In this document: positions 34,045 to 61,464 of the stretch, piece after piece | Layout of the letters: the number at the start of each line of letters is the position of its first letter | How positions within the stretch are numbered: position 1 is the stretch's first letter | Assembly (NCBI GenBank): GCA_963665095.1 | Contig: OY762069.1 | Span: 192,001 to 256,000 of the forward strand | DNA from: an uncultured Desulfobacter sp. | Lineage (GTDB): Bacteria; Desulfobacterota; Desulfobacteria; Desulfobacterales; Desulfobacteraceae | Length of the DNA: 64,000 nucleotides | Direction of reading: 5' to 3' | Position numbers and translations under genes: made by a program | Notes under the pieces: generated by a model | Seen by the model: only the letters and a program-made list of their open reading frames with translations | Told to the model about the DNA's origin: nothing | Database searches by the model: none

Positions 34045-34230
34045 GAAAGGCCATTCAGGTACTCGAAGGAGTGAAATACTTTAACGAGTTGAAAAGGGAA
34101 CCCTGTGGAAATCAGGGACGGGCCCCGCCGCTGTAATCGGGAACAAACGCTGCAAAAATGCCACTGTGAAATTTCATGGGAAGGCGCAGTAAGTAGGATG
34201 AACCGAGAGTCAGAAGACCTGCCTGGATAA
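34045..34230 (+). ncRNA. Cobalamin (AdoCbl) riboswitch 2
   Basis: CAGGT...AAAAGGGAACCCTGTGGAAATCAGGGACGGGCCCCGCCGCTGTAA...GCCACTG...GGGAAGGC...AGTCAGAAGACCTGCCT. Confidence 0.95.
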
Positions 34231-34291
34231 CATGGGATGCCGTACGTGGTAATGCGGAGCCCGCATGATCTTAAGGACGGAAAAAAGGGAC

Positions 34292-34331
34292 AGCCCTGGA
34301 TCGTTTGTATAAACGATTCAGGGCTTTTTTT
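34292..34331 (+). terminator. Riboswitch expression-platform terminator (attenuator)
   Basis: AGCCCTGGATCGTTT-GTAT-AAACGATTCAGGGCT followed by a T run. Confidence 0.8.
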
Positions 34332-34361
34332 GTTTGTAACGTGTAAACACGAGATCTGATA

Positions 34362-35117: not shown

Positions 35118-35962
35118 AGCTTGTTTCCCGGATCTGGCAGCTGGCCGGAAATATTTACCTGACCATGGGAATCATTGGATGCATGGTTGCGGACCTGGTT
35201 TGGGGATATGGAAAGCTCAAGGTTCACCAGGACATGTTTATCCCCATTAATGACAGGGGATTTACGGCATGGGCCGCTACCTGGGGCAGCGAGTCTCTTG
35301 CCATCACCCTCTGGCTTTTCATCCTGGTCGGGCTGATGGCACTTTTATCCATAAACACCTTTGTCTGTACTACAGACCGGGTCTTCACGCTGGTCCGTTT
35401 CCGGTACCGGTTTAAATCCTGGTGGCGTTTTTGCCTCAGATTGGGACCCCATGTCATGCACTATGCCATGCTCATCATGTTTCTGGGATACCTGGTATCC
35501 TACCTGTTCTCCGGGACCCATCTGGGAAAAATTCTTCTGCCGGAAAAAAGCATCTTCGTTAACGGGGTTAAAATCACCCTGAAGCAGATGGATATAAAAT
35601 ACTACGAGGGAACCCGGATGCCTCATCTCCAGGGACGGGTCATTGATGTCAAAGCAGCGATTCTGTTTGAAGATGCCCGGGGCAAATCGTTTCAAACCAT
35701 TGCCCATAACCGGCCGGCCATTTTCAGGGGCTTAAGCGTCCATTTAAGGGACTTCAGTCCCAAATACAAAGGCATGGGCATGGGCGGACCGCCCCGCCAA
35801 TATATCAATGTAACGGTAAAACAAGATCCCGGCATGAAATTTTATTTCGCCGGCATGGGCCTCTTTATTCTGGGTCTGTTCATGTATACCGGAGAAAAAC
35901 TGTTTGTTACCAAACCGGCTGCCGCTGCAAAGCGGGCCGTGCCGGTTGAGGAGGTGCAATGA
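35114..35962 (+). CDS. Short ResB/CcsB-like membrane protein
   Basis: TM segments, INTFVCT, GPHVMHYAMLIMFLG, NRP and KQDPGM..YFAG. ATGA overlap with the upstream gene fixes the start at 35114. Confidence 0.7.
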   Translation: MKLVSRIWQLAGNIYLTMGIIGCMVADLVWGYGKLKVHQDMFIPINDRGFTAWAATWGSESLAITLWLFILVGLMALLSINTFVCTTDRVFTLVRFRYRFKSWWRFCLRLGPHVMHYAMLIMFLGYLVSYLFSGTHLGKILLPEKSIFVNGVKITLKQMDIKYYEGTRMPHLQGRVIDVKAAILFEDARGKSFQTIAHNRPAIFRGLSVHLRDFSPKYKGMGMGGPPRQYINVTVKQDPGMKFYFAGMGLFILGLFMYTGEKLFVTKPAAAAKRAVPVEEVQ

Positions 35963-37104
35963 AGCGACATCCCGTATTCACACGGTTTGTTTTATATTAC
36001 TGTCTTGTTGTGCTCGCCGGAACCTTGGGATGTTCCCGGAATCAACAGGCAGAAGATCAGCCTGCCAAAGGAAAAGATATTGCTGAGACGACCTTTATGA
36101 GCATTGGCAGCTTTTCCGTCTCCAGCCTTTCCAACGGGACGACCCGGGTCAGGGACGGGTCAGGAAGAGAGCTGCTCCTGGTTCCAAGGCAGATGCAGGT
36201 CCCCGAGGGCACAGATCCGTCCCAGGTGGTGCGGACCCCGGTACGAAGGGTCGTGGCATACGGCTATTTTGACATCGCCATCCTCAAGGCACTGGGTGTC
36301 CTGGAAGACAGTCTGGTGGGGGTGATGGTACCCAGGGAAAAATGGATCATTCCCGAAGTGGTTAAGGGGATGGAAAGCGGCCGGATCGCCTACCTCGGTG
36401 ACTACAGTGGAATAGATATTGAACGGCTTCATCAGATCCAGCCGGACCTGGTTTTGACCTGGGATATGTCCATCATTCCCATTGCCGATGAGATGAAGGT
36501 GCCCTGCGCCATTACTACCACGCCTGTGGCCATGTGCCTGTCTGCCCGGATGAAGTTTGTCCGGTTCCTGGCCCCGTTTTTCAACAGGGAGGCAAAAGCT
36601 GAGCTCTTTTTTGACAGGATTTCCAACGCCCTGGAGCAGATCCGCATGGACACGGCAAAATCAGGATACAAACCCAAGGTCATGTGGGGGGATATCTATG
36701 AAAAAAGGGTGCTGGTGGAACCGGGCAATGCCTGGGTCGGAGAACTGGTGGAACTGGCCTTAAGCGATTACCAGTTCGAAGATGTATTCGGTACAAGCTG
36801 CATTGAAATCTCCCTGGAGCGATTTCTGGATTCCGGCCGGGACGCAGACATCTTTTTTACCTACCGGAATCCTGACAGCGGGGCCACCTCAAAGGAGGCC
36901 CTGGCCCGGGGCAACCCGCTGCTGGCAGGAATCAAGCCCATAAAAAGCGGCCGGGTCTACTCTCCGTTGCCCCACTATTATCAGTCCGGGGACAGGCTGG
37001 ACGAAATCCTTACGGATATTGCCGCCATCCTCCATCCGGAGAGCTACCCCGGTTATAAGATTCAATTTTTCAGAGAACTGCCGGACAAAGACCCCGCCTC
37101 ATAG
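35959..37104 (+). CDS. Cobalamin/iron-type ABC substrate-binding lipoprotein
   Basis: Lipobox TLGC, RTPVRRVV, DIERL..IQPDLV and DIAAILHPE. Confidence 0.85.
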   Translation: MKRHPVFTRFVLYYCLVVLAGTLGCSRNQQAEDQPAKGKDIAETTFMSIGSFSVSSLSNGTTRVRDGSGRELLLVPRQMQVPEGTDPSQVVRTPVRRVVAYGYFDIAILKALGVLEDSLVGVMVPREKWIIPEVVKGMESGRIAYLGDYSGIDIERLHQIQPDLVLTWDMSIIPIADEMKVPCAITTTPVAMCLSARMKFVRFLAPFFNREAKAELFFDRISNALEQIRMDTAKSGYKPKVMWGDIYEKRVLVEPGNAWVGELVELALSDYQFEDVFGTSCIEISLERFLDSGRDADIFFTYRNPDSGATSKEALARGNPLLAGIKPIKSGRVYSPLPHYYQSGDRLDEILTDIAAILHPESYPGYKIQFFRELPDKDPAS

Positions 37105-37130
37105 CGGTGCAAGATTTAAGGAGTAAACCC

Positions 37131-38192
37131 ATGACAACAACCCTTGCCCCTTCTGCCGATTTTACAGGGCACCGCAGGCTGATGCTGCGGCGGCGGACCA
37201 TCAGCTTTATTGTTTTCGGACTGGTGCTTGCCATGATCATGGCTGCCAATATCATGAACGGTTCTGTCAACATCAGACTGCCTGAGCTTTTATCCATCCT
37301 CGGGGGAGGCGATGCCGACAGTGTCAACGGATTCATCATATGGAAGATCCGGCTTCCCCGCGCCATTGCAGCCGCCTTAGGGGGCGGCTACCTGGCTGTG
37401 GCAGGACTCCTGCTCCAGGTATACTTCCGCAACCCCATTGTCGGCCCCTTTATTCTGGGCATCTCCTCCGGTGCCACCCTCACTGTTTCCCTGGTCATGC
37501 TGACCTCTTTGACCCTAGGCATGACGGTACTCAATCCTTACATGGCTACCCTGGCTGCCTTTGTGGGGGCATACGGGGTCATGCTCATTGTGGTGGGTAT
37601 TGCCGGGAAGGTGAAAAACGCGGTCACCCTGCTCATCGTGGGACTGATGATGGGGTACCTCTGCGGCTCGGTCACCGCCATCCTGACGGCCTTTGCGGAA
37701 AAGGAGAAGATCAAGGGCTTCGTACTCTGGCAGCTGGGCAGCTTTTCCGGCTTCCGGTGGACGGAAATTGAAATCCTCATTATTGCCGGCGGCCTCATCT
37801 GTGTCCTGGTCTACGCTCTGTCCAAGCCGCTGAATGCGTTTCTGCTGGGAGAGGACTACGCTGCCACCATGGGGGTCAACATAAGGCTTTTCCGCCTTTT
37901 GATCCTTTTGTCCTCCTGCGCCCTGGCCGGGATGATCACCTCCATGGCAGGTCCTGTGGCCTTTGTAGGGCTGGCCGTTCCCCATATGGTGCGCCTGGCC
38001 TTCGGCACCTCGGACAACAAGACCCTGATCCCGGGCTGTATCATGGTGGGCGCCGTTGTCACCAGCCTCTGCGATTTTATTGCACGGATGATTTTTTCTC
38101 CGGTGGAGCTGCCGATTTCCGCCATTACCGCCATGTTCGGCGCTCCCATTGTCATCAGTCTGCTCATGAAGCGAAAGGTAGGACTGTCATGA
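37131..38192 (+). CDS. FecCD/BtuC-family ABC permease
   Basis: IRLPRA, FRNPIVGPFILGISSGA, GPVAFVGLAVPH and ELPIS; AAGGAG RBS before ATG 37131. Confidence 0.9.
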   Translation: MTTTLAPSADFTGHRRLMLRRRTISFIVFGLVLAMIMAANIMNGSVNIRLPELLSILGGGDADSVNGFIIWKIRLPRAIAAALGGGYLAVAGLLLQVYFRNPIVGPFILGISSGATLTVSLVMLTSLTLGMTVLNPYMATLAAFVGAYGVMLIVVGIAGKVKNAVTLLIVGLMMGYLCGSVTAILTAFAEKEKIKGFVLWQLGSFSGFRWTEIEILIIAGGLICVLVYALSKPLNAFLLGEDYAATMGVNIRLFRLLILLSSCALAGMITSMAGPVAFVGLAVPHMVRLAFGTSDNKTLIPGCIMVGAVVTSLCDFIARMIFSPVELPISAITAMFGAPIVISLLMKRKVGLS

Positions 38193-39418
38193 AAAATACC
38201 CCTGTTCTGGCCACCGAGGATCTTACGGTGGGGTACCCGAAAAAGGATGTCCTCACATCCGTAAACCTGTCATTTTGCGCGGGCGAGTTCATCTCCCTTC
38301 TGGGTCCGAACGGTGTGGGAAAAAGCACCCTGCTCCGCACCCTATCCAAGCTTTTACCAAAGAGGAAAGGAGAGATATCTGTCCGGGGAAAGGCCCTTGA
38401 AAATTATACGGCGGACGCCCTGGCCAAGACCATGTCGGTCGTTCTTACCCACAAGTCCGTGCCCCCCCTGTGCCGGGTCTACGACTTTGTGGCAACCGGG
38501 CGCTACCCGCACACCAGCTGGACCGGGCATCTGACACAAAAGGATGATCAGGTCATCATGGATGCCGTGGCCATGGTCCATGCCCAGGATCTGATCCTCA
38601 GGGACATGATGACCCTGAGTGACGGGGAACGTCAGAAGGTCCTCATTGCAAGGGCACTGGCCCAGGAACCGGATATTATCCTCCTGGACGAGCCCACCAT
38701 GCACCTGGATCTCAAACACCGCATGGAAGTGATGTCCATCCTCAAGGAGATGTGCCGGACCAAGGGGATCTGCGTGGTGGCCTCCCTCCACGATATCGAA
38801 GTGGCCTCAAGAGTCTCGGACCGGGTGGTCCTGATCCGTAAAGGATGCATTAAAGGATTTGGTCCCCCCGAGGACGTTTTGGAAGAGGATACGGTTTCCG
38901 GGCTTTACGATTTTTCAGATGCCGGGTTCAGCCGGGTTCTGGGCAGCATTGAATTCAGAAGCCGGACCTCAAGGGACCGGGTCTTTGTTATCGGCGGCAT
39001 GGGCAGCGCCTCGGTTCTTTACCGATTGCTTTCCAAAAACGGTTACCAGGTGGCCACTGGTGTGCTGCTGAAAAACGACGTGGACTATCATGTGGCATCA
39101 TCTCTGAAACTCGATGCCCTGGCCCAGGACACCCTGGAAGCGGTGCTGCCTTCCAGTGTGGACAGGGCACTTGAAATGCTGAAAGGCTGCTGTGCTGTTG
39201 TGGATGCCGGCTTTGAGGCTGTCCCCCTCAACTGTGAAAATTTAAGATTGATCTCTGCGGCCAGGGCGCTTGGCAAGCCGGTATTCCGTCTCAACGGAAC
39301 CTGTCCCTGCACAAATGGCCACGCCTCGGACCGGCCTGAGGTGCCCGTGGAAATGACGGCAAATACCGAATCGGCTCTGGTGCAGTTAATCGAACGGGAA
39401 ATGGCACAGGCGTCATGA
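38189..39418 (+). CDS. BtuD-like ABC ATPase with a C-terminal extension
   Basis: GPNGVGKST, LSDGERQK and DEPTMHLD, plus about 150 extra aa starting RVFVIGGMGS. Confidence 0.88.
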   Translation: MKNTPVLATEDLTVGYPKKDVLTSVNLSFCAGEFISLLGPNGVGKSTLLRTLSKLLPKRKGEISVRGKALENYTADALAKTMSVVLTHKSVPPLCRVYDFVATGRYPHTSWTGHLTQKDDQVIMDAVAMVHAQDLILRDMMTLSDGERQKVLIARALAQEPDIILLDEPTMHLDLKHRMEVMSILKEMCRTKGICVVASLHDIEVASRVSDRVVLIRKGCIKGFGPPEDVLEEDTVSGLYDFSDAGFSRVLGSIEFRSRTSRDRVFVIGGMGSASVLYRLLSKNGYQVATGVLLKNDVDYHVASSLKLDALAQDTLEAVLPSSVDRALEMLKGCCAVVDAGFEAVPLNCENLRLISAARALGKPVFRLNGTCPCTNGHASDRPEVPVEMTANTESALVQLIEREMAQAS

Positions 39419-40506
39419 TCCCTGCCTACCTGATTCTCATGCTCACGGACAGATGCAACCTGTCCTGCCAATACTGCTACCTGGGCCAAAACAAAAAATC
39501 CATGCACAACGGCAAGGAGATATCCTCCCATCTCATTGACAAGGCCCTGTCCCTGTGGTTTGCCAACAAAAACAGATGGCGGATTCAGATCACCGGCGGG
39601 GAGCCGTTCCTGGCCAGAGAGCTCCTTGAATACACGGCAAAAAAGATAAGAGACGTATCTTTCAAGTCCCCTGTCTCAGTCCAGACCAACGCTACCCTCC
39701 TGAACCACAGGGATGCGGATCTGATCAAACGGTATCATCTGGAAATCGGGGTCAGTCTTGATGGGGATCCCGACATTCAAAACAGGGTCCGGGGAAAGGC
39801 GGCCGACACATTCAGGGGGATACGCTGCCTGGAAGAGGCAAAGATCCCCTTTAACGTAACCTGTGTGGTCTCTTCGGCCAATGCGGACCGGCTCCACCGC
39901 CTGGTCCTGGCTCTGGGCGGATTCTCCATGGCCCGGGGCATCGGATTCGACCTTCTGGTCTGCAAAGGCCGGGCCATGACTTCAGGTATCAGTCCGGCCT
40001 CGCCACAGGCGCTGACAACAGGGATCCGGAAACTCAAACAGGCCCTTACCATGGTTAATGCGGGGCGCAGCACCCCACTTGTACTCCGGGAGTTGGAAAA
40101 AATCAAATCGGCCCGCCGCGGCATCCGGCCGTCAGCATTCTGCCATGCCGCCAGTGGCAAGAGCCTTCTGGTCTCTCCGGGCGGAGAGCTTTACCCCTGC
40201 TCCCAGACCGCCTTTGACCCGGCCTTTTACCTGGGAACCCTGGAAAATAACCAAACGCAATCCAAGGCGGCTGCCGGAAGCGGAAAGCGGCCTCAGTGGC
40301 CCACTTTAGAAGAAAGAGCAAAAAATTTGTGTCCCTCCTGCAGCCTGAACGCCTGCTGCCAGGGGGAATGCCCCAGCCGTCTGTACTACGGCAACACAGG
40401 GGAAACGCCACTGGCCTGTACCCTGTATCAGGCCCTGGCGGACAATGAATCCAACAGGACGAGAACACGGGCTGCGGCCCGGCAATATCGAAAGGAACCC
40501 ATCTGA
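39415..40506 (+). CDS. Radical SAM/SPASM-domain protein
   Basis: CNLSCQYC, TGGEP, QTN and VSLDG; C-terminal C...GELYPC...CPSC...CQGECP...C. Confidence 0.9.
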   Translation: MIPAYLILMLTDRCNLSCQYCYLGQNKKSMHNGKEISSHLIDKALSLWFANKNRWRIQITGGEPFLARELLEYTAKKIRDVSFKSPVSVQTNATLLNHRDADLIKRYHLEIGVSLDGDPDIQNRVRGKAADTFRGIRCLEEAKIPFNVTCVVSSANADRLHRLVLALGGFSMARGIGFDLLVCKGRAMTSGISPASPQALTTGIRKLKQALTMVNAGRSTPLVLRELEKIKSARRGIRPSAFCHAASGKSLLVSPGGELYPCSQTAFDPAFYLGTLENNQTQSKAAAGSGKRPQWPTLEERAKNLCPSCSLNACCQGECPSRLYYGNTGETPLACTLYQALADNESNRTRTRAAARQYRKEPI

Positions 40507-43500
40507 TGGAAAAAGCGTTTTCAATGGCCTATTTCACGGCAGTTGGTATGGAAATTCCGTCCCTGAGCCAGGGAATCGAACAGTTTACAGAAGGTGGCGG
40601 GCAGATTCAGGTTCATGCCAAAACCTCAACCCAGCTGTTTGACGAAAAGCAGATCAAGGGATTTTGCAACAGGTGCCTGGAATCGGATATTATCATTATC
40701 GGCCTCCACGGCGGCCGGGAATCCTTTCCCGGATACAAGATTCTGGGAGAACAGTTGGCGGCGCATAAAAAGGAAGGCGGCACCCTTCCCTGGATCCATA
40801 TTCAGCCCTCAGGCTCAGACGAGGACTCCATTGAATGGGCACAGGAGTGGTCCACGCACTTTGGCACACCGGTCTGGGATAAGGTTTCCCAATACCTTGA
40901 CAACGGGGGTACCATTAATTTCTTCCGCCTCATCTGCTTTCTTGAGTCTGAAATTTTCGACCTTAAAAAAACGATCCCTCCGGCTGTGCCGGTTCCTTTT
41001 GATGGCATTTACCACCCAGATATCCAGGGGATTCCGGAAATTGAAGACTATCTCAAAACGTATATCAAACCCGGCCGCATCACCGTTGGGCTGTGGTTCA
41101 GCCAAATTTACTGGTTGAACAACGATGTGGATTACATCGATGCCATGATTCGGTCGGCCGAACGTCTGGGCGCAAACGTGATCCCTGTTTTCCACATGCG
41201 GTACAAGGACGCATCCAGGGGAAACCCCGGGGCCGAGTATGTGGCCCGCACCTTTTTCATGAAGGACGGCAAACCCATCATCGATGTGCTGCTCAGCCCA
41301 ATGATGTTTTCTTTGACCCTCATGGACCCCTCCTGCAAGGAACTCTTTGCCCGGCTCAACGTCCCGGTCATTCAGGCCATGGTGACCATGCAGCCCTATC
41401 AGAGCTGGAAGGAAGAGGTCCAGGGGATGAGTACCATGGAAGTGGGCCTTTGTGCTGCCCAGCCCGAGTTTGACGGCAATCTGATCTGCGGGCCCGTGGC
41501 CAGCCGGGAACAGGATAAAACCGACCCGCTGACAGGCGCACTTCTTGCCCGGTACGCCGCCATCCCGGAACGGACCGAACGGGTGGTGAACCTGGCTGTT
41601 AACTGGGCGAAGCTTGCCAAAAAGGAAAATGCCGAAAAAAAAGTGGCCATTATTTTTCACCACTATCCCCCGCGAAACGACCGCATCGGTTGCGCTGCCG
41701 GCCTGGACAGCTTTGTCAGTGTCAAACTCCTGCTGGAACGGATGAAGGAGGCAGGATACGTGGTGAACACCCTTTATGAGGACGGGGATGCCCTGGCCCG
41801 GGAGATGCTGTCCAAGATGACCTGTGACCAGCGCTGGCTTCTGCCCGAACAGATGCACGAGCGGGCCGCCGCCCTGGCCGGCCCGGACGAATACCACCCC
41901 TGGCACGAGGGCCTGCCCCAACCCATCCGGGATAAACAGAACGGGGACTGGGGAAAGATGCCCGGCGACCTGTTCGTCCATGATAACGAGATGATTTTTC
42001 CCGGCACCATGAACGGCAACGTCTTTATTACCATCCAGCCCCCCAGGGGATACTTTGAAAATATCGATAAGATCTACCATGACATGTATCTGTCCCCGCC
42101 CCATCATTACCTGGCCTATTACCGCTATATCAAACATTCGTTCAAGGCCGATGCCGTGATTCACGTGGGGACCCACGGCTCTTTGGAATGGCTGCCGGGC
42201 AAGGCCCTGGGTCTGTCCGAAGAATGCTATCCGGATCTGTCCATCATGGACCTTCCCAATATCTACCCCTATGTCATCAACGACCCAAGCGAAGGGACCC
42301 AGGCCAAACGAAGAAGTTATTGCTGCATCATCGACTATATGACCCCGGTCTTTACCAATGCGGACCTCTACGAAAGCCTGGCGGATGTGGAAAACCACGT
42401 GAAATCCTACTTTGACGCCAAAAGCGCCGATCCTGCCAAGATAGAGATCCTGCAGCCCATGATCTGGGAGGCCGTGGTGGAGGCCAACCTGAACGATGAC
42501 CTGGACATGACCCGGGAAGAGGCGTTTCAGGACTTTGACGGATTTCTGGAAAAACTCCACGACTACCTGGGGGAGCTGGGCGACACCATGATCAACGACG
42601 GACTCCATACCCTGGGCCAGGTCCCCCAGGGTGAACAACTGGTGGAGCTTCTGGTCCAGCTCACCCGGATCGCCAACGGCAGTGTACCCTCCCTGCGGGA
42701 GGCCGTGGTCCTGTCCCTGGGCCATGACTATGACCATCTGCTGGAAAACAGAGGGAAAATGGTGGATAAGGCAAGGGGAATGACCGGTTCCATGCTGATC
42801 CAGCAGGCCCACAGTCTGGCATTAAATCTGGTCAGTGCCATGTCGGAAACCGGTTATGACGGTGACCCGGATAAAATCGCCGCCGCTGCCAGGCAAATCA
42901 TCACCGCGCCTCATCCCGACACCCTTGAAGTACTCTCCTATCTTGCAGACTCTGTGGTCCCCAATCTGAGGAAAACCACAGAGGAGCTGGATGCGGTCAT
43001 GACCGCACTGGACGGGGGCTTTGTCAGGCCCGGCCCGTCAGGATCACCCACCCGGGGCCAGGCAGACATCCTTCCCACGGGCCGCAATTTTTATTCTGTA
43101 GACCCCCAGAAGATCCCCACTCCCGCGGCCTGGGAGGTAGGCATGCGTCTGGGGGACGCCCTGTTGCAAAGGTACATTGATGAAACCGGTGGTTACCCCA
43201 GGAGCGTGGGGATGCTGGTTTACGGCAATCCCACCATGAAAACCGGCGGAGACGATATCGCTGAAATTTTTTATCTGATGGGCGTCAAACCCGTCTGGCA
43301 CCCGAGCAACGGGATTGTCAAGGGGGTTGAAATCATCCCCCTGGAAGAACTTGGACGGCCCCGGATTGACGTTCTGCCAAGAATTTCAGGCTTTTTCAGG
43401 GATTCATTCCCCCTGCTTGTGGAACGGATTGACGATGCTTTCCGCATGGTGGCCTCCCTGAACGAACCCATGGAAACCAATATGATCCGGCGTCATGTCT

Positions 43501-47474: not shown

Positions 47475-47477
47475 TTT

Positions 47478-48500: not shown

Positions 48501-48514
48501 AAGGAAATATCATT

Positions 48515-49252
48515 ATGTTACGCAGTATTATTGCCGTTTATTTGCGGGAAATGCTGATTTTAAAACAAAGATTGAACCGGCAGATTCCCTCCTGGTCGGT
48601 ATCCCCCCTGCTCTACCTCATCGCCTTTGGGTATGCCGCCGGCTATTCGGTGCAGGTGGAGGGCCACACCTACATGGCCTTTCTCATTCCGGGCCTTATG
48701 GCCATGAACAGCATGACCCAGGCCTTTGCCATTGCAGGCGACGTCAATATTGCCCGGTTCTACTGGCATACCTTTGAAGAGTTTCAGGCCGCCCCTGTAT
48801 CCAAGACCGCCTATGTGACGGGCGAGGTCCTGGCCGGAATGACCCGGGCCCTGTTATCGGTGCTGGTGATCATGCTCATGGCCCTGGTATTCCGGGTGGA
48901 CATCCACTATAACGTTGCATTTCTCATCGGAATCCTGCTCAACAGTTTTGTTTTCGCCTCCCTGGCCGTGGGCCTGGCCATGGTGGTCAAGTCCCATGCA
49001 GACCAGTCCCTGCTCACCTCCTTTGTGATCACGCCCATGGCCTTTTTGGGGGGTACCTTCTTTCCGGTGGACCGGCTGCCGGCCTGGGCCGGGACTTTGC
49101 TTTCCCTTCTGCCCCTGACCCATGCCTCAAAGGCCATCCGGGATGCCTGTCTGAACAGCAGGGCGGACATGGGATCCTGGCTGATTCTGCTGATAACCGG
49201 CATTGCCTTTTTCATCATGAGCGTGGCCCTGGTGGAGAAAGCCAAAGACTGA
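48515..49252 (+). CDS. ABC-2 type permease
   Basis: YMAFLIPG, FLGGTFFP and LPLTHA; six TM segments. Confidence 0.88.
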   Translation: MLRSIIAVYLREMLILKQRLNRQIPSWSVSPLLYLIAFGYAAGYSVQVEGHTYMAFLIPGLMAMNSMTQAFAIAGDVNIARFYWHTFEEFQAAPVSKTAYVTGEVLAGMTRALLSVLVIMLMALVFRVDIHYNVAFLIGILLNSFVFASLAVGLAMVVKSHADQSLLTSFVITPMAFLGGTFFPVDRLPAWAGTLLSLLPLTHASKAIRDACLNSRADMGSWLILLITGIAFFIMSVALVEKAKD

Positions 49253-49264
49253 GGAAAAACGATC

Positions 49265-50914: not shown

Positions 50915-50957
50915 TACTGCCCCCTGGCCACATACAGGGGGCAAAGGAGTCCTTAAG

Positions 50958-53900: not shown

Positions 53901-54770
53901 TACCCGGACAAACAGATCGCAAGGATGGCCAGCTTCAGGGTATTTTCCTCTCCCCCCGGCACCTACGGCATCGGCGTGGGCCTGGCCCTGGACGCCTCGG
54001 CCTGGGAAACCGAGGCCGATCTTGTGGAGACCTACGTGAACTGGGGCGGCTATGCATACGGATCTTCCAGGAATGATGACCTGCCCAGGGTGTCGGGCCA
54101 GGCCGCCCACGCCCTGTATGCGAAACGCCTGGAAACCGTGGATGCCACCTATATGCGCCAGTACTGCCCGGAGTACGATCTTCTGGACGGTGGCTGCTAT
54201 GCCGCCTATCTGGGTGGTATGTCCCTGGCATCCAAAACCCTGAGCGGAAAATCTGCGCCCATTTACTGGGGGGATGCCAACGCTGCCGGGGACAACTCCA
54301 TCCGGGACGTAAAGGAGGATATCGAAATGTCGGCCCGGGCCCGCCTGATCAATCCCCGGTGGATCGAAAACCAGAAAAACCACGGATTCAAAGGTGCGGA
54401 AAGCGTCTCCAGCCGGGTGAACAACCTGTTTAAATGGAGTGCAGTGACAAAGAAGGTGGACAAGTGGGTATTTGACGAGGTGGTGGAGACCTATATTCAC
54501 AACCCTGAAAATTTTGAGTGGCTCAAAAGTCAGAATCCCTATGCCCTGGAAGAGCTGACCCGCCGACTCCTGGAAGCCCAGGCCAGGGGACTCTGGGATG
54601 CCGACCCAGAGGATCTGGATGCCATCAAAAACGTGGCCCTGGATATCGAAGGAGACATGGAAGAGCGCATCGGAGATGTGGATGAGGAGTACCAGGGCAG
54701 TGCCGTGGATATCCTTACTGCATCGGATGTGGAAAAATGGAAACGCGAGTGGCGCTTGACAAAAGAGTAA
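50958..54770 (+). CDS. cobN: CobN/BchH-type chelatase large subunit 2 (Cys-rich subtype)
   Basis: QPEMAG, PKRGCYGAKCNGEVCRILHD, HFGTHGAVEFLPGK, LPSGRNL and NPRWI. Confidence 0.9.
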   Translation: MKICFVYGHMFNVHSWSLACDTLRADGIEVSLFSQVGSADTLAAHMEEAGVDLFIGQLFRELPGYDLILEYAMKAGARACIGWDIPSDFSTFTHDQLAVLSTYLKAPHAGNYRNGILYLAALCGADVKAAPAVPVQTHGIYHPGASELFDTSRAYLAWVRDTQPAAAGPVVGVLAYFGQLAEKNHDDIDAVIQELSRQGMIPLCVVSEGPQDASLPLEQRYPWLHYLTQLEKNEKPAALISLMTGRLLATASDIPVLTELDIPVFQAVRLYQQTPEDWERDVDGSGAGGFSTIYAMSQPEMAGAIEPTMAAATLPDEHPDSAINFRRYVPVAERIAHLCRRIRKWAALAQMPNHDKRITIVLNNNPCKGVEATLGLAAGLDTFESLARTIAALNAAGYDVGDAPGDGQALLDAFMDKKAFSEFRWTTVDETVKKGGVLHFMDETAYRRHFDALPRTARQRVEKDWEPFPGQGMVYEREGKQVLVIAGLSFGNLTLVIQPKRGCYGAKCNGEVCRILHDPNLAPPHHWLATYFYIQDHSDAVVHFGTHGAVEFLPGKPSALSRACFPEISLGDLPNIYPYALDVPAEGAMAKRRGRAVTVTHLTPVLRPAQVPPEMVRLQTLLKEYMTAKENRSARRIEILEQEMIPLVRDLHLGAPDTALDISLLSRQISQYKRTLSPLGMHVLGMAPDAAGTAAMMAVMLMKETDDKPSLGELAGLFQPGNPAEGLEEDSSTTEDAFDRAARVIQDLIATGAEAATGQEIVTDSLAPSFKDWCKKTGSHIAQSSREIFQILRALEGRYIEPGVCGSMALGNTRVLPSGRNLFPTDVQALPTKAAWQVGQELCDNLLKKYMADEGRFPESVGINLWSLDAFKSDGEIFCQILYLMGTRPVWRNGGKVTGIEAIPLPDLKLTIDDTLYQPRPRVDVVIQTSGILRDMVPHFADLVDEAAVLASGLDESHDLNFVKKHTDEEMERLRRELNDQYPDKQIARMASFRVFSSPPGTYGIGVGLALDASAWETEADLVETYVNWGGYAYGSSRNDDLPRVSGQAAHALYAKRLETVDATYMRQYCPEYDLLDGGCYAAYLGGMSLASKTLSGKSAPIYWGDANAAGDNSIRDVKEDIEMSARARLINPRWIENQKNHGFKGAESVSSRVNNLFKWSAVTKKVDKWVFDEVVETYIHNPENFEWLKSQNPYALEELTRRLLEAQARGLWDADPEDLDAIKNVALDIEGDMEERIGDVDEEYQGSAVDILTASDVEKWKREWRLTKE

Positions 54771-54809
54771 AAGCCCGTAATCCGCAACCATAAACGGAAG
54801 GAAAACATT

Positions 54810-57800
54810 TTGAAGGTTGCCTTTATTGCATTTCATCATGAAGTATCGTCTGCCCTGGCAGCGGCCAGATCCATCCATGAGGAAACCGGTGAAACACTGG
54901 AAGTCCTCGCACTGACACCTGAAAAATTTCAGGAAACCAGCCATCTGGATCAATTCCTGGAATTTACCCGGGATGCCGCACTGGTTATCATGCACCTGAT
55001 GGGCGGAAAATCAGTCCTCAAAGACCCGGATATCATCCTGTCATCACTCAAGAATCAAAACGTTCCGGTTTTTGCTGCCGGCGTTCCTGCCGACGCCGAA
55101 CTTGCAAACGATTCAACAGTTGATGAAAAAGAGTATCAGACCATTGCCGCATACATTAACAATGGCGGGCCTGAGAACATTAAAAACCTTCTGCTGTTTG
55201 CCGCAAACCGTTTCGCCGGCAAAAGCGTTACAGTCAATCCGCCCATAAAATTCCCCCTTGAAGGCATATACCACCCTAAGCTTGGCTATGTAAAAAACCT
55301 GGCCCATTACATGGAAAAAAAATATCTGCCCGAAAGGCCGACCATCGGCATCCTGTGCGGCCCCAATCCGACCAGGAATACAGGAGAACATTATATCGAC
55401 AGCCTGATCAACGAGCTCGAACACCAGGGGGCAAATGCCTATTCCGTATTCTTAAGCGGGACCGATCCCCAGGGCAAAAATTTAAGATGGGTTGTGGAAA
55501 ACTATTTCATGAAAGACGGCATCCCGGTCGTTGATACGGTGATCAGTCCACACGGACATTCCATTGCCGCCTACCTGCCGTCTGAATCCGTAACCGACCT
55601 GTTCAAGTCCCTTGGCGTACCCCTGCTCAAGGCAATTGCCACTTCCAATACCTTAGAACAGTGGCAGGACAGCCTGCTGGGCCTTGGTTTCAGTGAAGTG
55701 TCCTGGAACGTGGCCATGCCCGAGTTTGACGGTTTTATCATCACCGTGCCGGTTGCGGCCAAACAGATCTCCGGAACAGACCCGGCATCCGGCATTGAAA
55801 AGGAGACTCTCAAACCGATTCCCGAACGTATTGACAAGCTGGCCCGTCTGAGCCTCAAATGGGCAAAACTGAAATATATTCCCAACCCGGAGAGGAAAAT
55901 CGCCGTCATTTTTCACAATTATCCGCCGCGCAACGACAATATCGGATGTGCTGCAGGTCTCGATTCTGCGGTGTCTGCCGTAAACCTGCTCGAAAAAATG
56001 CAGGCCCGGGGATACCAGCTGGACTTTATCCCTGAAAACGGCCAGGACCTGATGGATACAATTATCAATGGATTGACCAATGATCAGCGCTGGTTGAGTA
56101 TTGAGGACCTGGCTGACCGGTCTGTGGATAAAATTCCGGCCGCCCGGTATGCCGAATGGCTGGATGAGGTTCCGGATGATGCCCGCAATAAAATGAAAAC
56201 CCATTGGGGAAAACCACCGGGCGAAAATTTCAACTACAAGGACGCGCTCCTGGTTCCGGGCCTGGTCAACGGTAACGTGTTTATCGGCCTTCAACCCCCC
56301 CGTGCCTGTGAATCAGATGCCGCTGATATTTACCATAATCCCGAAGTTCCCATCCCCTATCATTACCACGGGTACTACCGCTGGATCCGGGATGTCTTCA
56401 AGGCTGACGCCGTGATCCATTTCGGCACCCACGGCACACTGGAATGGCTGCCCGGAAAATCCGTAGGGCTTTCCGGATCCTGTTTCCCGGATGTGGGAAT
56501 CTGCGATCTGCCCAATATTTACCCCTACATTATCCATAACCCCGGCGAGGGTACCGGTGCCAAGAGACGCATCTATGCCTGCCTTGTGGACTATCTGCCT
56601 CCGGTGATGCATAACGCCGACACCTATGAGGACCTTGAAAGTCTCGATGTACAGCTCAAAGAGTACTACCGCGCCAAAAGTACAGATCCCGGAAAAATTG
56701 AAATTCAGAAAAAACTGATCTGGGAAACCATTGCCCGGGCCAATCTTGACAAAGATTTCAATGTGACCCGGGAAGAGGTGTTTAATGAATTTGACCAATT
56801 TTTAGAGCGGCTGCACGGTTATCTGAATGAATTGTCCGATACCCATATCCAGGACGGACTGCATGTGCTGGGTGAGCCGCCGGCAGGGACGCCCCTGGTA
56901 GAATTTTTAGTGGCGTTAACCCGGCTGAAAAACGGCAAAGTTCCCTCCCTTCGTCAGTCCATTGCCCAATTAAAGGGGTATGATTATGATGCACTGCTGG
57001 CCAATCGCGGCAGACTGCGCCCGGATAACAGAACCAACGGGGATGTCATCAGCGAACTGAACTTTCTTTGTCTTGAACTCATGGAAAAATTTCATGCTGC
57101 AGGCTTTAAGACTGATGCCATTGACGATTTGATGTCAAAGGTGCTGAACGGTCCTGACCCCTGGGTTCGGGACTGCTTAACCTGGATTTCCGATTTTCTC
57201 GTTCCGGCCCTGGAAGCGACCACCGATGAATTGACCCATACCCTTGACGCATGCGCCGGCCGTCATGTCCCGCCGGGACCTTCTGGTGCCCCTACCAGGG
57301 GAACGGCCGATATCCTGCCCACGGGAAGAAATTTTTATTCGGTTGATCCCCGCTGTATCCCTTCGCCGGCGGCCTGGAAGGTGGGGGTTGATCTGGGGGA
57401 TACCCTGCTTGCGCGGTACGTGGCGGAAGAAGGCCGATATCCGGAGAGCATCGGAACCGTCCTGTGGGCAACGGACACCATGAGGACCAACGGCGATTGC
57501 GTGGCCGAAAGTCTGTACCTGATGGGAATCCGGCCGGTATGGGAGGGATCCAGCGGCCGCGTGCTGAGGCTTGAGCCCATTCCCTTAAAGGAATTGAAAC
57601 GCCCCCGTATCGATGTAACCATGCGGATCAGTGGCCTGTTCAGGGATAATTTTCCCAATATCGTGCATCTCATCGACGAAGCCGTGGAAATGGTGGCCGC
57701 TCTCAAGGAAGTCCCTGATATGAATTATATCATGAAGCATGTGGAACAGGAGGTTGCCGATCGTACAGCATGTGGGGTTGACGCTGGGACAGCCAGAAAG

Positions 57801-58535
57801 GAGGCCTGCTACAGGATATTCGGCGATAAGCCCGGCGATTACGGCACAGGTGTCGGTGAAGCCATTGAGTCTAAAAACTGGAAGGATCGGACAGATCTCG
57901 GGAATATATACATCACCTGGGGCGGTTACGTGTACAGCCGGGAAAACTTCGGGATGACCGCCCCTGAACTGTTCAAACGGCGGCTGGCCCGGATTGACGC
58001 CACCACGAAAAACATGGACACCCGGGAATATGACGCCCTGCAGATAGACGACACCTATGGATATCATGCCGGCATGGACCTGGCCGTCAAGACTGTCAGG
58101 GGAAAAGCGCCCCGCTCCTATTACGGTGACAGCAGTGACCCTGACAGGGTAAAAATCAGAAGCACGGCAGAGGAGATCAAATACTGCTTCAGGGCGCGTC
58201 TGGTGAACCCCAAATGGATTCAGGGCCTTCAAAAGCACGGCTATCATGGCGCAGCAGAGTTTTCCCGGCAGATGGATTATGTTTTCGGCTGGGATGCGGT
58301 AGCAGATGTCATTGAAGACTGGATGTATGAAACCCTTGCCGAAAAATTCGTTTTGGATCCGGCCATGCAAACATGGCTGAACGACGTCAATCCATATGCA
58401 TTGCAGAACATGACAGAGCGTCTTTTGGAAGCCATCGGGCGCGACCTGTGGCAGGCGTCTGAAGAGATGAAGGACAAATTGCAGGCACTTTACCTTGATA
58501 TGGAGGCGAAACTGGAGGAGGCCGGCGAAAAATGA
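54810..58535 (+). CDS. cobN: CobN/BchH-type chelatase large subunit 3
   Basis: MPEFDG, HNYPPRND, HFGTHGTLEWLPGK, GLHVLG, LPTGRNFY and NPKWI; TTG start. Confidence 0.92.
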   Translation: MKVAFIAFHHEVSSALAAARSIHEETGETLEVLALTPEKFQETSHLDQFLEFTRDAALVIMHLMGGKSVLKDPDIILSSLKNQNVPVFAAGVPADAELANDSTVDEKEYQTIAAYINNGGPENIKNLLLFAANRFAGKSVTVNPPIKFPLEGIYHPKLGYVKNLAHYMEKKYLPERPTIGILCGPNPTRNTGEHYIDSLINELEHQGANAYSVFLSGTDPQGKNLRWVVENYFMKDGIPVVDTVISPHGHSIAAYLPSESVTDLFKSLGVPLLKAIATSNTLEQWQDSLLGLGFSEVSWNVAMPEFDGFIITVPVAAKQISGTDPASGIEKETLKPIPERIDKLARLSLKWAKLKYIPNPERKIAVIFHNYPPRNDNIGCAAGLDSAVSAVNLLEKMQARGYQLDFIPENGQDLMDTIINGLTNDQRWLSIEDLADRSVDKIPAARYAEWLDEVPDDARNKMKTHWGKPPGENFNYKDALLVPGLVNGNVFIGLQPPRACESDAADIYHNPEVPIPYHYHGYYRWIRDVFKADAVIHFGTHGTLEWLPGKSVGLSGSCFPDVGICDLPNIYPYIIHNPGEGTGAKRRIYACLVDYLPPVMHNADTYEDLESLDVQLKEYYRAKSTDPGKIEIQKKLIWETIARANLDKDFNVTREEVFNEFDQFLERLHGYLNELSDTHIQDGLHVLGEPPAGTPLVEFLVALTRLKNGKVPSLRQSIAQLKGYDYDALLANRGRLRPDNRTNGDVISELNFLCLELMEKFHAAGFKTDAIDDLMSKVLNGPDPWVRDCLTWISDFLVPALEATTDELTHTLDACAGRHVPPGPSGAPTRGTADILPTGRNFYSVDPRCIPSPAAWKVGVDLGDTLLARYVAEEGRYPESIGTVLWATDTMRTNGDCVAESLYLMGIRPVWEGSSGRVLRLEPIPLKELKRPRIDVTMRISGLFRDNFPNIVHLIDEAVEMVAALKEVPDMNYIMKHVEQEVADRTACGVDAGTARKEACYRIFGDKPGDYGTGVGEAIESKNWKDRTDLGNIYITWGGYVYSRENFGMTAPELFKRRLARIDATTKNMDTREYDALQIDDTYGYHAGMDLAVKTVRGKAPRSYYGDSSDPDRVKIRSTAEEIKYCFRARLVNPKWIQGLQKHGYHGAAEFSRQMDYVFGWDAVADVIEDWMYETLAEKFVLDPAMQTWLNDVNPYALQNMTERLLEAIGRDLWQASEEMKDKLQALYLDMEAKLEEAGEK

Positions 58536-60277
58536 GGCTGACAAGCCGGATGGGTGCCCTGGTAACGGGGTTTGTGGTTTGGGCGGGGATTCTTTTTTCT
58601 GCAATGGCCGGGGAGGAGTCCGCCACGGTGATCACCCGGGAAAATATCAGGCAGATGAATGTCGGCAGTATCCAGGATGTACTGAACCAGGTGCCCGGAA
58701 TCTCAGCCACGGACAGCTATATCTCCATCAGGGGGTCCTACAAGGTAAAGGTCTTTTTAGACGGCAACAGCATCAATGATCCCACCTCCACCAGTGGTGC
58801 CATCAAATGGGGAACCGTCTCCTTAAACCAGGTGGACCGTATTGAAATCCTGCGGGGAGGGGGTGCATCTTCCTTTGGCAGCAATGCCAGCGGCGGTGTG
58901 GTTCTGATCCAGACCCGGCCCCCGGAACAGGGCCAGAAAAACACGCAGGCCATGGTTGAAGCCTGGGCCGGCAACCTTTCAACCGTCCACGGATATGCCA
59001 GCCTGGACCAGATGGTAGACCGGGGCCCGGGGGTATTCGGTATCCGGGCCGCAGCCGGCGTTGACATCTCGGACGGCTATCTGGTCAACAATGACAAGGA
59101 CAAGCGGCATGTCGAGGTCAAACTCTCCTACAGGCCCCGGGCCGATTCATGTGTCAAAATGGCCGATATCATCATTTCCCGGCTGGAAGAAGAAAAAGGA
59201 TATCCTGGAACCATTGACTATCCCACCCCAAATGCCAGGCACTGGTACGACCTGACCACGGTTGTCTCCAATGCCGCATTCAAGGGATTTAAAAACAAGT
59301 TCACCTATCGCCAGGCAGACAAGGAGGATAAAAATCCGGATTATAACCTTGAAACCTTCCTCAACGTTACAAATACAATTGATGAGCTCACCCACGAACC
59401 GGTTTCCCTTGGTCCGGGGCAACTGAGTGCAGGACTGGGCCTGCAGCGGGATGAGGCTGAAGCCTCATCATTTTCCGACCAGAGCGAGGATCAGTACTGG
59501 TTTTTTGCAACCTATGCCGGCCAGATCAAGACCCTGAATTATACTTTGGGGACACGGGCCTCAAATCATACCGAGTTTGGCACCAGCATCAGCCCCGAGA
59601 TCAAACTCGCCTGGTCCCAGGGGTCTTGGTCCTGGATTTCCAGGGCCGGCCTGGCACACAACACCCCCTCTTTCTATCAACGGTACAACGAGAGCAGTTC
59701 AACAGCCCCCAATCCCGATCTGGACAAGGAAATCGCCCGAAATCTGTCTACGGAAATATCCTATACCTTCAATGCCAGGCTGTCAGCCACCCTGTCCCCC
59801 TACTACAACCGGATTGAAGACAGGATCACCTATATCAGGGACAACACGGCCAAGGGACAGTACCAGAACATAGGAAAGGTCACCTATGCGGGTGTGGATC
59901 TCTCTTTCAGGACGGATCTGCTGGATAACCTGACACTTAACGGGGCCTGGTCCTATCTGGAAGCCAAAAACGAGGAAACCGGCAAATACCTGACCGGGGC
60001 CTCCAGACATCGGATAAAATCCGACCTGAATTATAAACCCCTTTCCGATCTAACCCTGAGGCTGACCGGGAAATATACCGGAAGCGCCTATTGCGTTTCG
60101 GACAACTCCGAAAGTGTGGGTGGTTTTACCGTATGGGATTTCCGTGCCGAATACCGGGTCAAATCGGTTCTATGGTTTGTTGATATCAAAAACATTTTTG
60201 ACAACCGATATATGTACTCTGAAAAAATATGGGGCAGCCCCAGGACCTTTTACGCAGGACTAAGGTGGCAGCTATGA
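58532..60277 (+). CDS. TonB-dependent receptor
   Basis: Signal peptide, QVPGI, ISIRG, DRIEILRG, NPDLDKE, IKNIFD and C-terminal PRTFYAGLRWQL. Confidence 0.88.
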   Translation: MRLTSRMGALVTGFVVWAGILFSAMAGEESATVITRENIRQMNVGSIQDVLNQVPGISATDSYISIRGSYKVKVFLDGNSINDPTSTSGAIKWGTVSLNQVDRIEILRGGGASSFGSNASGGVVLIQTRPPEQGQKNTQAMVEAWAGNLSTVHGYASLDQMVDRGPGVFGIRAAAGVDISDGYLVNNDKDKRHVEVKLSYRPRADSCVKMADIIISRLEEEKGYPGTIDYPTPNARHWYDLTTVVSNAAFKGFKNKFTYRQADKEDKNPDYNLETFLNVTNTIDELTHEPVSLGPGQLSAGLGLQRDEAEASSFSDQSEDQYWFFATYAGQIKTLNYTLGTRASNHTEFGTSISPEIKLAWSQGSWSWISRAGLAHNTPSFYQRYNESSSTAPNPDLDKEIARNLSTEISYTFNARLSATLSPYYNRIEDRITYIRDNTAKGQYQNIGKVTYAGVDLSFRTDLLDNLTLNGAWSYLEAKNEETGKYLTGASRHRIKSDLNYKPLSDLTLRLTGKYTGSAYCVSDNSESVGGFTVWDFRAEYRVKSVLWFVDIKNIFDNRYMYSEKIWGSPRTFYAGLRWQL

Positions 60278-60294
60278 CCAAAGGAGATAAAATC

Positions 60295-61464
60295 ATGCAT
60301 ATCCATACATTTTACAAGGAAGTTGAACTCTATCGGAACGATAAAATCCTCTATGCCAGATTTCTTGTCCCCCACCGGGTGATTTCCACCTGCCAGGTGG
60401 CCGGCGGGATCCGGGAAGACATGGATATCCTGTATAATCACCAGTCCTGCGAACCCTCAGGCCATCATTCCATCACCTCGGATATTATGGCGATGGACCG
60501 GTCCCGTTACCGGGAGTACATCTGTGAACAATACGGTCTTGACCCTGAGAAATGCGCCACCCTGGGGACTGCCGCCAATATGCGCAATGCCGCCGTAAAG
60601 CAGGCACGCTTCAGGGATCTCACCGTAGCAGCCGTGTGCACCGGCGGTGTGGAGGGGAATGCCGGCCGGGCCGGCGATCCCGCGTCCCATTTTGAACATG
60701 ACGGCAAATTTGAAAAGCTTCCGGAAAAACAGCCCAAACCCGTGGGCACCATCAATACCATGATTTTTATCAACAAGGAACTCATCCCCGGGGCCCTGGC
60801 CCGGGCCATTATGATGGCCACTGAAGCGAAAACAGCTGTGCTTCAGGAGCTTCTTGTTCCGTCATTGTATTCGGACGGCCATGCCACCGGCACCGGCACC
60901 GACCAGATCGGCGTGGCCTGCCGCATGGATACAGGCAAACCCCTTACCAGTGCGGGAAAACACGGCAAGCTGGGGGAGCTTATCGGGCTGACGGTCCACG
61001 ATGCCATCAAGGAAACCCTGGCCCAGCAGAACGGCCTTTTCCCCGGAACCCGGCGATCCGTGGCCGTGCTCCTGGCGCGGCTGGGCATGACGGAGCAGGA
61101 TATCCGGGACCAGGTTTCAAGCCACCTTGTTCCGGAGGATGCCGAGCTCTGGCCCAAGGTCGAGGGCGTTGTTCTCGGTGACGCCCTGGTGGTCGCCGCC
61201 GTGGCCGCCCTGGTCCATATCAGGGACCAGATGGTGTGGGAGATTATCCCTGACAACTGCCTGCCTGAAATCCTGGCCTCCTACGGGGCCCAGATTGCCG
61301 CTGCCGTATCCTGCAAGCATAAAAAAATTTTGGAGTACCGCTCCCGTGCTGATTCCCAGGGCCATAGCCTTGAAAATAGCGTATTTACCGGGTTTATCTG
61401 CCGGATGCTGGCGTTAGGGTTCTCAGACAAGTGGCAAGAGAGGGTGACCCCGGAGGGGGATTGA
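60295..61464 (+). CDS. cbiZ: Adenosylcobinamide amidohydrolase family protein
   Basis: TGGVEGNA, GTINT, TEAKT, ATGTGTD and GKHGKLGELIG; AAGGAG RBS before ATG 60295. Confidence 0.88.
   Translation: MHIHTFYKEVELYRNDKILYARFLVPHRVISTCQVAGGIREDMDILYNHQSCEPSGHHSITSDIMAMDRSRYREYICEQYGLDPEKCATLGTAANMRNAAVKQARFRDLTVAAVCTGGVEGNAGRAGDPASHFEHDGKFEKLPEKQPKPVGTINTMIFINKELIPGALARAIMMATEAKTAVLQELLVPSLYSDGHATGTGTDQIGVACRMDTGKPLTSAGKHGKLGELIGLTVHDAIKETLAQQNGLFPGTRRSVAVLLARLGMTEQDIRDQVSSHLVPEDAELWPKVEGVVLGDALVVAAVAALVHIRDQMVWEIIPDNCLPEILASYGAQIAAAVSCKHKKILEYRSRADSQGHSLENSVFTGFICRMLALGFSDKWQERVTPEGD

Follow-up and report, generated by a model that had tools for sequence, protein, structure and literature searches.

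A 64,000-nucleotide stretch of contig OY762069.1 from an uncultured Desulfobacter sp., here called the window, carries on its forward strand a cobalamin riboswitch followed by 16 genes, among them three CobN-type chelatase large subunits (CobN1, CobN2 and CobN3), the ChlI and ChlD motor subunits, a radical SAM enzyme, an importer and an exporter. This operon is conserved and belongs to a kind of B12-controlled module that has been published but not explained chemically, of which it is an unusually full example. In a sample of genomes from the phylum, every genome in which its radical SAM marker was found also has the ring gene cbiG, which moves the question from B12 salvage to what the carriers supply to their own pathway. 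We tentatively favour, at something short of even confidence, the explanation that imported tetrapyrroles are stripped of their metal, with cobalt passing to de novo synthesis and the remaining ring leaving the cell through the exporter. It is an open question in the literature why CbiK-using strict anaerobes also keep an 'aerobic' CobN chelatase. The operon is a compact test case for it, since a single motor here serves three metal-site variants of the large subunit, in the company of a fixed radical SAM partner and of both import and export systems.

Layout, conservation and distribution of the operon

The aptamer matches RF00174 over the full model at 121.8 bits (gathering score 31.5; Rfam). 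It is followed by a 15-pair stem (34,292–34,325), the sole long terminator-like stem on the + strand between 33,400 and 64,000, where the remaining + strand stems have 5–7 pairs each. An earlier note, made from the letters of the sequence, had described a riboswitch and attenuator heading 16 co-directional genes with no obvious internal terminator, and this description holds. Totals of terminator- and promoter-like matches lie near the shuffle level (26 vs 18.0 ± 4.9 and 22 vs 18.9 ± 4.0), and a simple test, exact complementarity of at least 6 nt to the 5' arm of the 15-pair hairpin, gave no antiterminator. The + strand genes run from 34,362 to 61,464 with junctions of −49 to +43 nt, packed so tightly that we infer a single transcript; there is no room between them for a short precursor-peptide gene. 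The operon has no CobW, and Pfam finds no ring methylase among its 16 genes, as had been claimed.

A search of species-representative genomes yielded 65 loci, mostly in Desulfobacterota but also in Firmicutes, a Methanosaeta metagenome-assembled genome (MAG) and others. Partners were counted in 96 non-redundant stretches of 6–60 kb (12 duplicate or off-clade loci dropped), many of them cut by contig ends, 57 of which hold a CobN1-clade gene. The closest partner of that clade is the radical SAM enzyme (43 of 57), followed by ChlI (34), the binding protein (33), the ResB-like protein (29), the exporter permease (28), the CcsA-like protein (27), CbiZ (23), the TonB receptor (21) and the nitrilase (13), while an HmuT match was found in none of the 57. 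The core set, exporter included, recurs in Desulfobacterota, Firmicutes and a methanogen, and in six of the seven relative loci scanned with Rfam the counterpart of the operon likewise has a riboswitch immediately before it. The genes are thus conserved together with the riboswitch, and the refuting condition named in the earlier note, a lack of such conservation, did not hold.

For the phylum as a whole, seven candidates in each of 300 evenly drawn genomes were scored for the radical SAM marker, giving 17 loci in 16 genomes. A CobN lies in the stretch at 15 of these loci, a same-strand riboswitch upstream or within at 12, the CcsA/ResB pair at nine and the nitrilase at eight. cbiG was found in 137 of the 300 genomes and cobS in 229, and each of the 16 genomes with the marker has the two genes. 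Of the genomes with cobS, the module is carried by 16 of the 135 that have cbiG as well vs none of the 94 that lack it (naive Fisher p 2.5e-4, in a sample where the carriers fall into 11 families, kin are not independent and single markers stand for pathways). When the C-terminal portion of CobN1 (no less than 50% identity) serves as the marker instead, it picks out 18 genomes, namely the same 16 plus G321 and G404; 17 of them have cbiG, and none is among the 94 salvage-only genomes. Outside the phylum cbiG is present in four of five non-Negativicutes carriers, the exception being the Methanosaeta MAG, and the expectation that Negativicutes carriers lack ring genes failed, all five having 6–8 tetrapyrrole methylase matches. 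Plain reuse of finished rings fits poorly with the empty count in salvage-only genomes. The simplest way to read the confinement to ring-makers is that the module supplies something just they can use, either cobalt or an early ring; by pathway logic, free cobalt would be useful to ring-makers only, while a re-metalated finished ring would serve salvagers too.

The genome itself has 14 cobalamin riboswitches and a separate riboswitch-headed anaerobic de novo operon with cbiK, cbiA, cbiC, cbiD, cbiE/T, cbiF, cbiG, methylases (four ring methylase matches), cobQ and an ABC importer. With a full cbiK pathway elsewhere, the window chelatase is not needed for ordinary cobalt insertion, and a role of CobN-ChlID as the sole de novo chelatase is ruled out (cobG and cobF were not searched). 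The other refuting condition of the earlier note, CobN-ChlID being the only ordinary de novo cobaltochelatase, therefore did not hold either, and its reading of the system as B12-linked is supported.

Metal sites, radical SAM partner and transporters

CobN1 and CobN3 pass the CobN model TIGR02257 and, narrowly, the BchH cut-off as well; CobN2 (TIGR02257, 650.6) lies below both. The best PDB match of CobN1 and CobN3 is 7c6o, an inserting CobN. ChlD, like ChlI, has intact Walker A and B motifs, its DxSxS is intact, and the model that it passes, TIGR02442, is that of a putative cobaltochelatase. The cobalt-site residues of CobN have been reported as His554, Glu593 and Asp1100 (bioRxiv 10.64898/2026.07.21.739949), a numbering that fits the count along the alignment with PDB 9uk9, on the assumption that 9uk9 is the protein of the preprint. 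All three window paralogs keep the catalytic His and Glu (H557 and E596 in CobN1). In CobN1 the Asp ligand has become Thr within C1099-T1100-D1101 (Cys-Thr-Asp), and CobN2, whose relatives are Cys-rich at the metal site, reads Gly-Gly-Cys in place of Ser-Asp-Asp, with Gly at the ligand position and Cys next to it. CobN3 is the sole one of the three with His, Glu and Asp all intact. A FastTree phylogeny of 80 large subunits, rooted at its midpoint and without a reference for ChlH or HmuS, groups CobN1 in a clade (support 0.997) in which 47 of 47 members have the Asp replaced (Thr 45, Val 2), with an invariant Cys just before it, and the CobNs that lie inside de novo clusters (n = 3) keep Asp-Ser-Asp-Asp. 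Because their metal-site residues differ, the three paralogs are probably not redundant, and different paralogs may well work in different directions; from the metal-site change alone one cannot read which way the metal moves. Genomes without cbiG also contain members of another CobN-like group (36–41% identity; e.g. G319, G406, G238, G298 and G420), many of whose frames measure only some 500 aa and may be pieces of split genes. One further CobN-family gene (L020:8919-12665 in G011) has the second-His motif of HmuS and no evident signal peptide, and lies directly behind a CobN of the Cys-Thr-Asp type.

A link to HmuS had been drawn in the earlier note, and it does not extend to the window proteins. 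No hydrophobic segment that could act as a membrane anchor occurs in CobN1, CobN2 or CobN3, they have no hmuTUV neighbours, and at the second His of HmuS (His1209, domain V) they carry Asp, Cys and Asp, respectively; heme-iron extraction of the HmuS type was rejected on these grounds. The genome has a second CobN-family cluster (L002-L003, G000:C1:4515064-4547778) with three HmuS/BtuS-like genes that do have membrane anchors, each with DUF2162, MotA/ExbB and DUF2149 (HmuT/U/V-type) neighbours and TonB receptors. Two cobalamin riboswitches head this cluster, which also includes another cbiK, a double-cubane module, a paralog of the nitrilase and a fusion of BtuF with CbiZ. HmuS is the best match of the one HmuS-like gene that was compared, but the missing His1209 means that the three proteins may not be heme dechelatases.

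The radical SAM proteins form a discrete, single-copy family (E < 1e-85, vs 1e-28 for the next matches). AhbC, AhbD and NirJ models match 14 of 28 members weakly, while PapB- and anSME-type models match all 28, with the first member far below their cut-offs. Kinship with AhbC, AhbD or NirJ is therefore not supported, and the closer likeness to protein-modifying enzymes means that the enzyme might mature CobN just as readily as it might act on a ring. The family has many members in gut metagenomes, and a homolog is recorded from the cultured Desulfobacula toluolica. The ESM Atlas gave just generic names for this protein and for the nitrilase, which keeps its Glu-Lys-Cys catalytic triad (E45, K118, C149).

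In the binding protein C183, C193 and C281 are conserved. Across 34 homologous matches the C281 position, which we take to lie at the ligand cleft of BtuF, is Cys in 24 and TGA in two; the in-frame TGA codons are in L052:2249-3352 and L057:2192-3193, and likely encode selenocysteine. Conservation of this position as Cys or TGA suggests a metal-bearing cargo. None of the solved relatives of the protein was informative.

The CcsA-like protein has invariant H121, H209 and H211 in the alignments, a degenerate WWD motif and no C-terminal ligand His, and the ResB-like protein has invariant C85, H113 and H116. Structure models of the two have a mean pLDDT of 78 and 85, respectively; the top Foldseek rows of the CcsA-like model are CcsBA and CcmF, weak at E 0.005–0.025, with TM 0.65–0.68 for two of them, and PDB sequence-profile searches with both alignments found nothing real, so that these matches are by fold only. 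The two proteins are predicted to pair (complex score 0.85 vs 0.30 for the best control), with at least 92% of contacts shared between runs and a partner pLDDT of at least 80. Of 157 solved pairs 116 attain this mark, as do 2 of 215 pairs that are mismatched. Since the CcsBA structure is already solved, this pass may only show likeness to it. Compared with the canonical ccsA-resB pair of the genome, both membrane His and the first periplasmic His are kept (three of four), the second periplasmic (C-terminal) His is absent and the middle Trp of WWD is lost; the ligand roles of these residues are presumably those of the CcsBA membrane and periplasmic His. None of the 16 operon proteins contains a CXXCH motif. 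Cytochrome c maturation was accordingly rejected for the pair (altered WWD, lost ligand His, no CXXCH, a canonical ccsA-resB elsewhere), and fold and residues together suggest that the pair passes on or conducts a tetrapyrrole and does not act as a cytochrome synthase.

Features of the operon are collected in Table 1. The family labels that the earlier note had given to the 16 genes are each backed by Pfam; BtuFCD and BtuB are to be taken as generic names, the proteins falling below the NCBIfam cut-offs for BtuC, BtuD and BtuB. The best NCBIfam match of the importer ATPase is a corrinoid ABC ATPase, below cut-off, and that of the receptor is TIGR01779 (BtuB), at 144.3 bits far below the cut-off of 599.7. 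The start of chlD is uncertain, with in-frame TTG/GTG codons at 44,251–44,269, overlapping cobN1, or CTG at 44,290, and the overlapping starts rule out a broken gene. For cbiZ, 60,274 or 60,295 is a more likely start than 60,229. The His-rich tail of the exporter ATPase is missing from many orthologs and was given no weight for that reason.

Table 1. Features of the riboswitch-headed operon (window positions).
Feature	Position	Strand	Basis
Cobalamin riboswitch aptamer (RF00174)	34040..34240	+	Rfam; riboswitch also upstream in relatives
Terminator-like hairpin, 15 pairs and T run, likely attenuator	34292..34332	+	Stem scan
CcsA-like membrane protein, 251 aa	34362..35117	+	PF01578; Foldseek
Short ResB/CcsB-like protein, 282 aa	35114..35962	+	PF05140; Foldseek CcsBA E 2e-6
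Periplasmic binding protein, BtuF/FepB class	35959..37104	+	PF01497
FecCD/BtuC-type permease	37107..38192	+	PF01032
Importer ATPase, BtuD class, 409 aa	38189..39418	+	PF00005
Radical SAM protein, 7-Cys SPASM-type C-terminal part	39415..40506	+	PF04055; conserved Cys
CobN1, cytoplasmic class I chelatase large subunit	40506..44288	+	TIGR02257 935.7 > 822
ChlD-type subunit, AAA+ plus vWA with DxSxS	44269..46362	+	TIGR02442 800.1 > 779.5
ChlI-type AAA+ ATPase, Walker A and B intact	46404..47474	+	Pfam, NCBIfam, motifs
ABC-2 exporter ATPase (DrrA/NodI-like), His-rich tail	47478..48500	+	NCBIfam
ABC-2 exporter permease, invariant H167	48497..49252	+	PF01061
Nitrilase-superfamily amidohydrolase, 549 aa	49265..50914	+	PF00795
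CobN2, divergent large subunit	50958..54770	+	Below CobN and BchH cut-offs
CobN3, large subunit, His/Glu/Asp cobalt ligands intact	54810..58535	+	TIGR02257 997.3 > 822
TonB-dependent receptor	58532..60277	+	Plug domain
CbiZ amidohydrolase	60229..61464	+	PF01955 207.9 bits

Proposed cobalt removal and competing explanations

In the explanation that we favour, low cobamide would let transcription pass the terminator, and the TonB receptor and BtuFCD-type importer would bring in cobalt-bearing rings that are unusable as they are, i.e. foreign or damaged corrinoids, or flat cobalt porphyrinoids. The CcsBA-like pair would serve as a channel or relay lined with His. To make the ring fit a CobN, its nucleotide loop and amides would be trimmed by CbiZ and the nitrilase, and release of the metal would be prepared by the radical SAM enzyme, perhaps with neighbouring ATP-driven reductases, either through damage to the ring or through reduction of the metal; the anaerobic opening of the heme ring by ChuW, from another radical SAM class, offers an analogy. 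The ATP-driven CobN-ChlID chelatases would then pull the metal out, with three CobNs of different metal sites sharing one motor and covering different cargoes. Cobalt would reach CbiK, and the ABC-2 pair would export the leftover ring. A bolder version, in which B12-making anaerobes mine cobalt from the corrinoids of others, a Cys-site CobN-ChlID and a ring-damaging radical SAM enzyme passing it to CbiK while the wreck is exported, we consider unlikely; if true, no enzyme before it would have been seen to take cobalt from a corrin, and the cobalt cycle of sulfidic habitats would gain a new route.

Removal is favoured because it accounts both for the distribution and for several features of the loci, namely the exporter, the Cys-bearing sites, the nearby reductases and the frequency of cbiK as a neighbour. 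An exporter has no obvious job in cobalt insertion. cbiK is found in 13 of the 57 CobN1-clade stretches vs a cbiM-like gene in one, and a proven metal remover, HmuS, belongs to the same family (PMC12583661).

Several points weigh on the other side. CobN1 and CobN3 are closest to inserting CobNs, and all three cobalt ligands are present in CobN3 and in the CobN copy of G213, a relative discussed below. To our knowledge, all class I chelatases with a motor that have been characterised are metal inserters, and we know of no enzyme that extracts cobalt from corrins. With CbiZ available for remodelling, it would also be a waste to strip a cobamide that the cell can use. The distribution has the limits given above, G404 (90% complete) has a CobN1-clade gene with neither cbiG nor cobS found, the Methanosaeta MAG (G154) carries the module without a cbiG match, and cbiD at family level is uninformative (14 of 15 carriers vs 119 of 150). 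Cobalt corrins have been described as giving up cobalt only with destruction of the ring (PMC6771967), for which the radical SAM enzyme would be needed; HmuS needs no ATP (PMC12583661), and Dehalobacter restrictus keeps and induces its module despite a truncated cbiH (PMC4285132).

The close rival is late insertion, in which CobN-ChlID puts cobalt into metal-free corrins, either imported or the cell's own intermediates that lost or missed their cobalt, with CbiZ and the nitrilase trimming and the exporter dumping surplus metal-free ring. We regard it as quite possible, though short of probable. All biochemical precedent is on its side, as are the family cut-offs passed by CobN1, CobN3 and ChlD, the inserting CobNs as best structural relatives and the intact His/Glu/Asp of CobN3. 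Cobalt-starved purple sulfur bacteria make cobalt-free corrinoids (PMC6771967), cobalt insertion into imported cobalamin has already been speculated for Chlorobaculum (PMC8620254), cobA and cbiC occur in eight and two of the 57 stretches, and rescue of own intermediates would also account for the confinement to ring-makers. Yet import of metal-free corrins should help salvage-only genomes, none of whose 94 members carries the module, and late insertion would leave a cobalt shortage unsolved; the operon has no CobW, a cobalt-importer gene lies beside only one of the 57 stretches, and the Asp ligand is missing in CobN1 and CobN2. Cobalt taken from corrins would be new chemistry, and late insertion a useful but modest extension of salvage.

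It is rather improbable, in our view, that receptor, BtuFCD and CbiZ serve ordinary cobamide salvage while the chelatase, radical SAM and exporter block has a separate job under the same riboswitch, e.g. removing wrong metals from own ring intermediates. The published reading of the related D. restrictus operon is indeed augmented salvage (PMC4285132), gene order is shuffled between relatives, and radical SAM-cobN units stand under their own riboswitch without an importer (L058, L071). Against such a division, the importer forms a family of its own and accompanies CobN1 (in 33 of 57 stretches), other riboswitch-headed BtuF-CbiZ units in the genome (L003, L005) would serve plain salvage, and TonB receptor-CobN pairs recur among relatives. 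Least probable of all is a shuttle in which a metal-free, tetrapyrrole-derived chelator is exported through the ABC-2 pair and the CcsBA-like channel, loads cobalt and is re-imported for CobN-ChlID to unload or proofread: two outward-type systems and one inward in one operon, the confinement to ring-makers, which own the precursor, and the fact that CcsBA moves heme outward and that the window pair keeps both membrane His would suit it, but we know of no such chelator, CbiZ points to corrinoids with a nucleotide loop, and those versions from Firmicutes and a methanogen that were examined lack the CcsA/ResB pair.

Neighbouring operons and known systems

On either side of the operon lies a further riboswitch operon, missed in the earlier note. 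Both encode nitrogenase-like reductases (NifH/D/K-like genes) along with a binding protein and a TonB receptor. One (window 11,560–20,066, − strand) has a riboswitch of 111.6 bits followed by the receptor, binding protein, permease, ATPase and NifH/D/K-like genes, and its NifH-like protein matches the CfbC and NifH models best, below their cut-offs; inspection of the translation shows a transposase-like open reading frame (20,441–21,127, − strand) just upstream of its riboswitch. The other is convergent (61,471–64,000, − strand, continuing in L001:1471-16477, G000:C1:253471-268477) and comprises a BtuB-like receptor, an unknown 318-aa protein, a ferredoxin-like membrane protein, an ABC pair, NifH/D/K-like genes and a double-cubane-like protein with its activator ATPase, below the family cut-off. 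Its binding protein is 31% identical to that of the window operon, and in G066, G132 and G011 parts of this convergent operon are found within the homologous cluster or next to it. NifH/D/K-like genes also stand directly beside cobN-chlID-radical SAM genes in gut Negativicutes (L081, L082, L085, L087, L099). Elsewhere in the genome there are NifH/D/K-like sets at L007:14766-18116 and L014:8252-11543 and a nifH-like fragment at L006:2805-3197; genes at C1:4.845-4.853 Mb resemble a nitrogenase cluster and are separate from these sets. Two other riboswitch-headed loci carry a ThiC-like/Bza-type lower-ligand gene with cobT (L013:11213-13653) and an ADH-CobT fusion behind a glycosyltransferase-family gene (L012:9308-12923).

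Five known systems invite comparison. CcsBA, the System II cytochrome c synthase (PDB 7s9y, 7s9z), resembles the CcsA/ResB-like pair in fold, predicted pairing, membrane His and first periplasmic His, whereas the window pair has an altered WWD, no second periplasmic His, a much shorter ResB domain and no CXXCH protein in its operon. HmuS and BtuS share the fold family and show that a CobN relative can demetalate an imported tetrapyrrole, but HmuS is described as membrane-anchored, ATP-independent, accompanied by hmuTUV and bearing a second His, traits of which the window CobNs share none (PMC12583661, PMC6460266). CobNST and CobN-ChlID (PDB 7c6o, 9uk9) are the closest solved relatives of CobN1 and CobN3 and, like the window set, have a complete AAA+/vWA motor; the window operon differs in having neither aerobic ring genes nor CobW, in the replaced Asp of CobN1 and CobN2, and in three large subunits to one motor.

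In Chlorobium and Chlorobaculum a cobN-bchH-bchI-bchD cluster has been described beside a cobalamin TonB receptor and cbiZ (PMC8620254). As in the window, class I chelatase genes there lie by B12 uptake genes in an anaerobe with cbiK, but the parts of that paper describing the cluster, by which we liken it, mention no radical SAM enzyme, exporter, nitrilase or CcsBA-like pair (PMC8620254). In the open-access literature we found neither a CcsBA-like pair nor this nitrilase joined to CobN, and no report on confinement to ring-makers, part of which may be covered by Rodionov et al. 2003.

The novelty implied by the earlier note does not hold for the core of the operon, which is that of the published operon-2 of D. 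restrictus. Its genes are listed as fepB, cbiZ, fepD, fepC, cbiZ, fepB and cobN, with two chelatase subunits, a radical SAM gene and an ABC pair like a Nod-factor exporter (PMC4285132, Table S1). Corrinoid starvation induces operon-2, with a 346-fold rise in transcript and a mean 46-fold rise in protein, and the induced proteins include CobN, ChlD, ChlI, the radical SAM enzyme and the ABC ATPase; for these five, the high-vs-low differences in Table S4 range from −1.2 to −1.7 (PMC4285132). The operon is syntenic with a locus of Acetobacterium woodii, and the passages on operon-2 assign no chemistry to its chelatase (PMC4285132). A locus with the same gene order in G213 encodes proteins 28–56% identical to those of the window. 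The operon-2-type gene set is complete in the window (riboswitch, FepB/C/D-type importer, CbiZ, CobN, ChlD, ChlI, radical SAM enzyme and NodI/J-like ABC pair), with one CbiZ rather than two and a main CobN without the Asp ligand that the G213 copy keeps, and to this set the Desulfobacter operon adds the CcsA/ResB-like pair, the nitrilase, the TonB receptor and two more CobNs.

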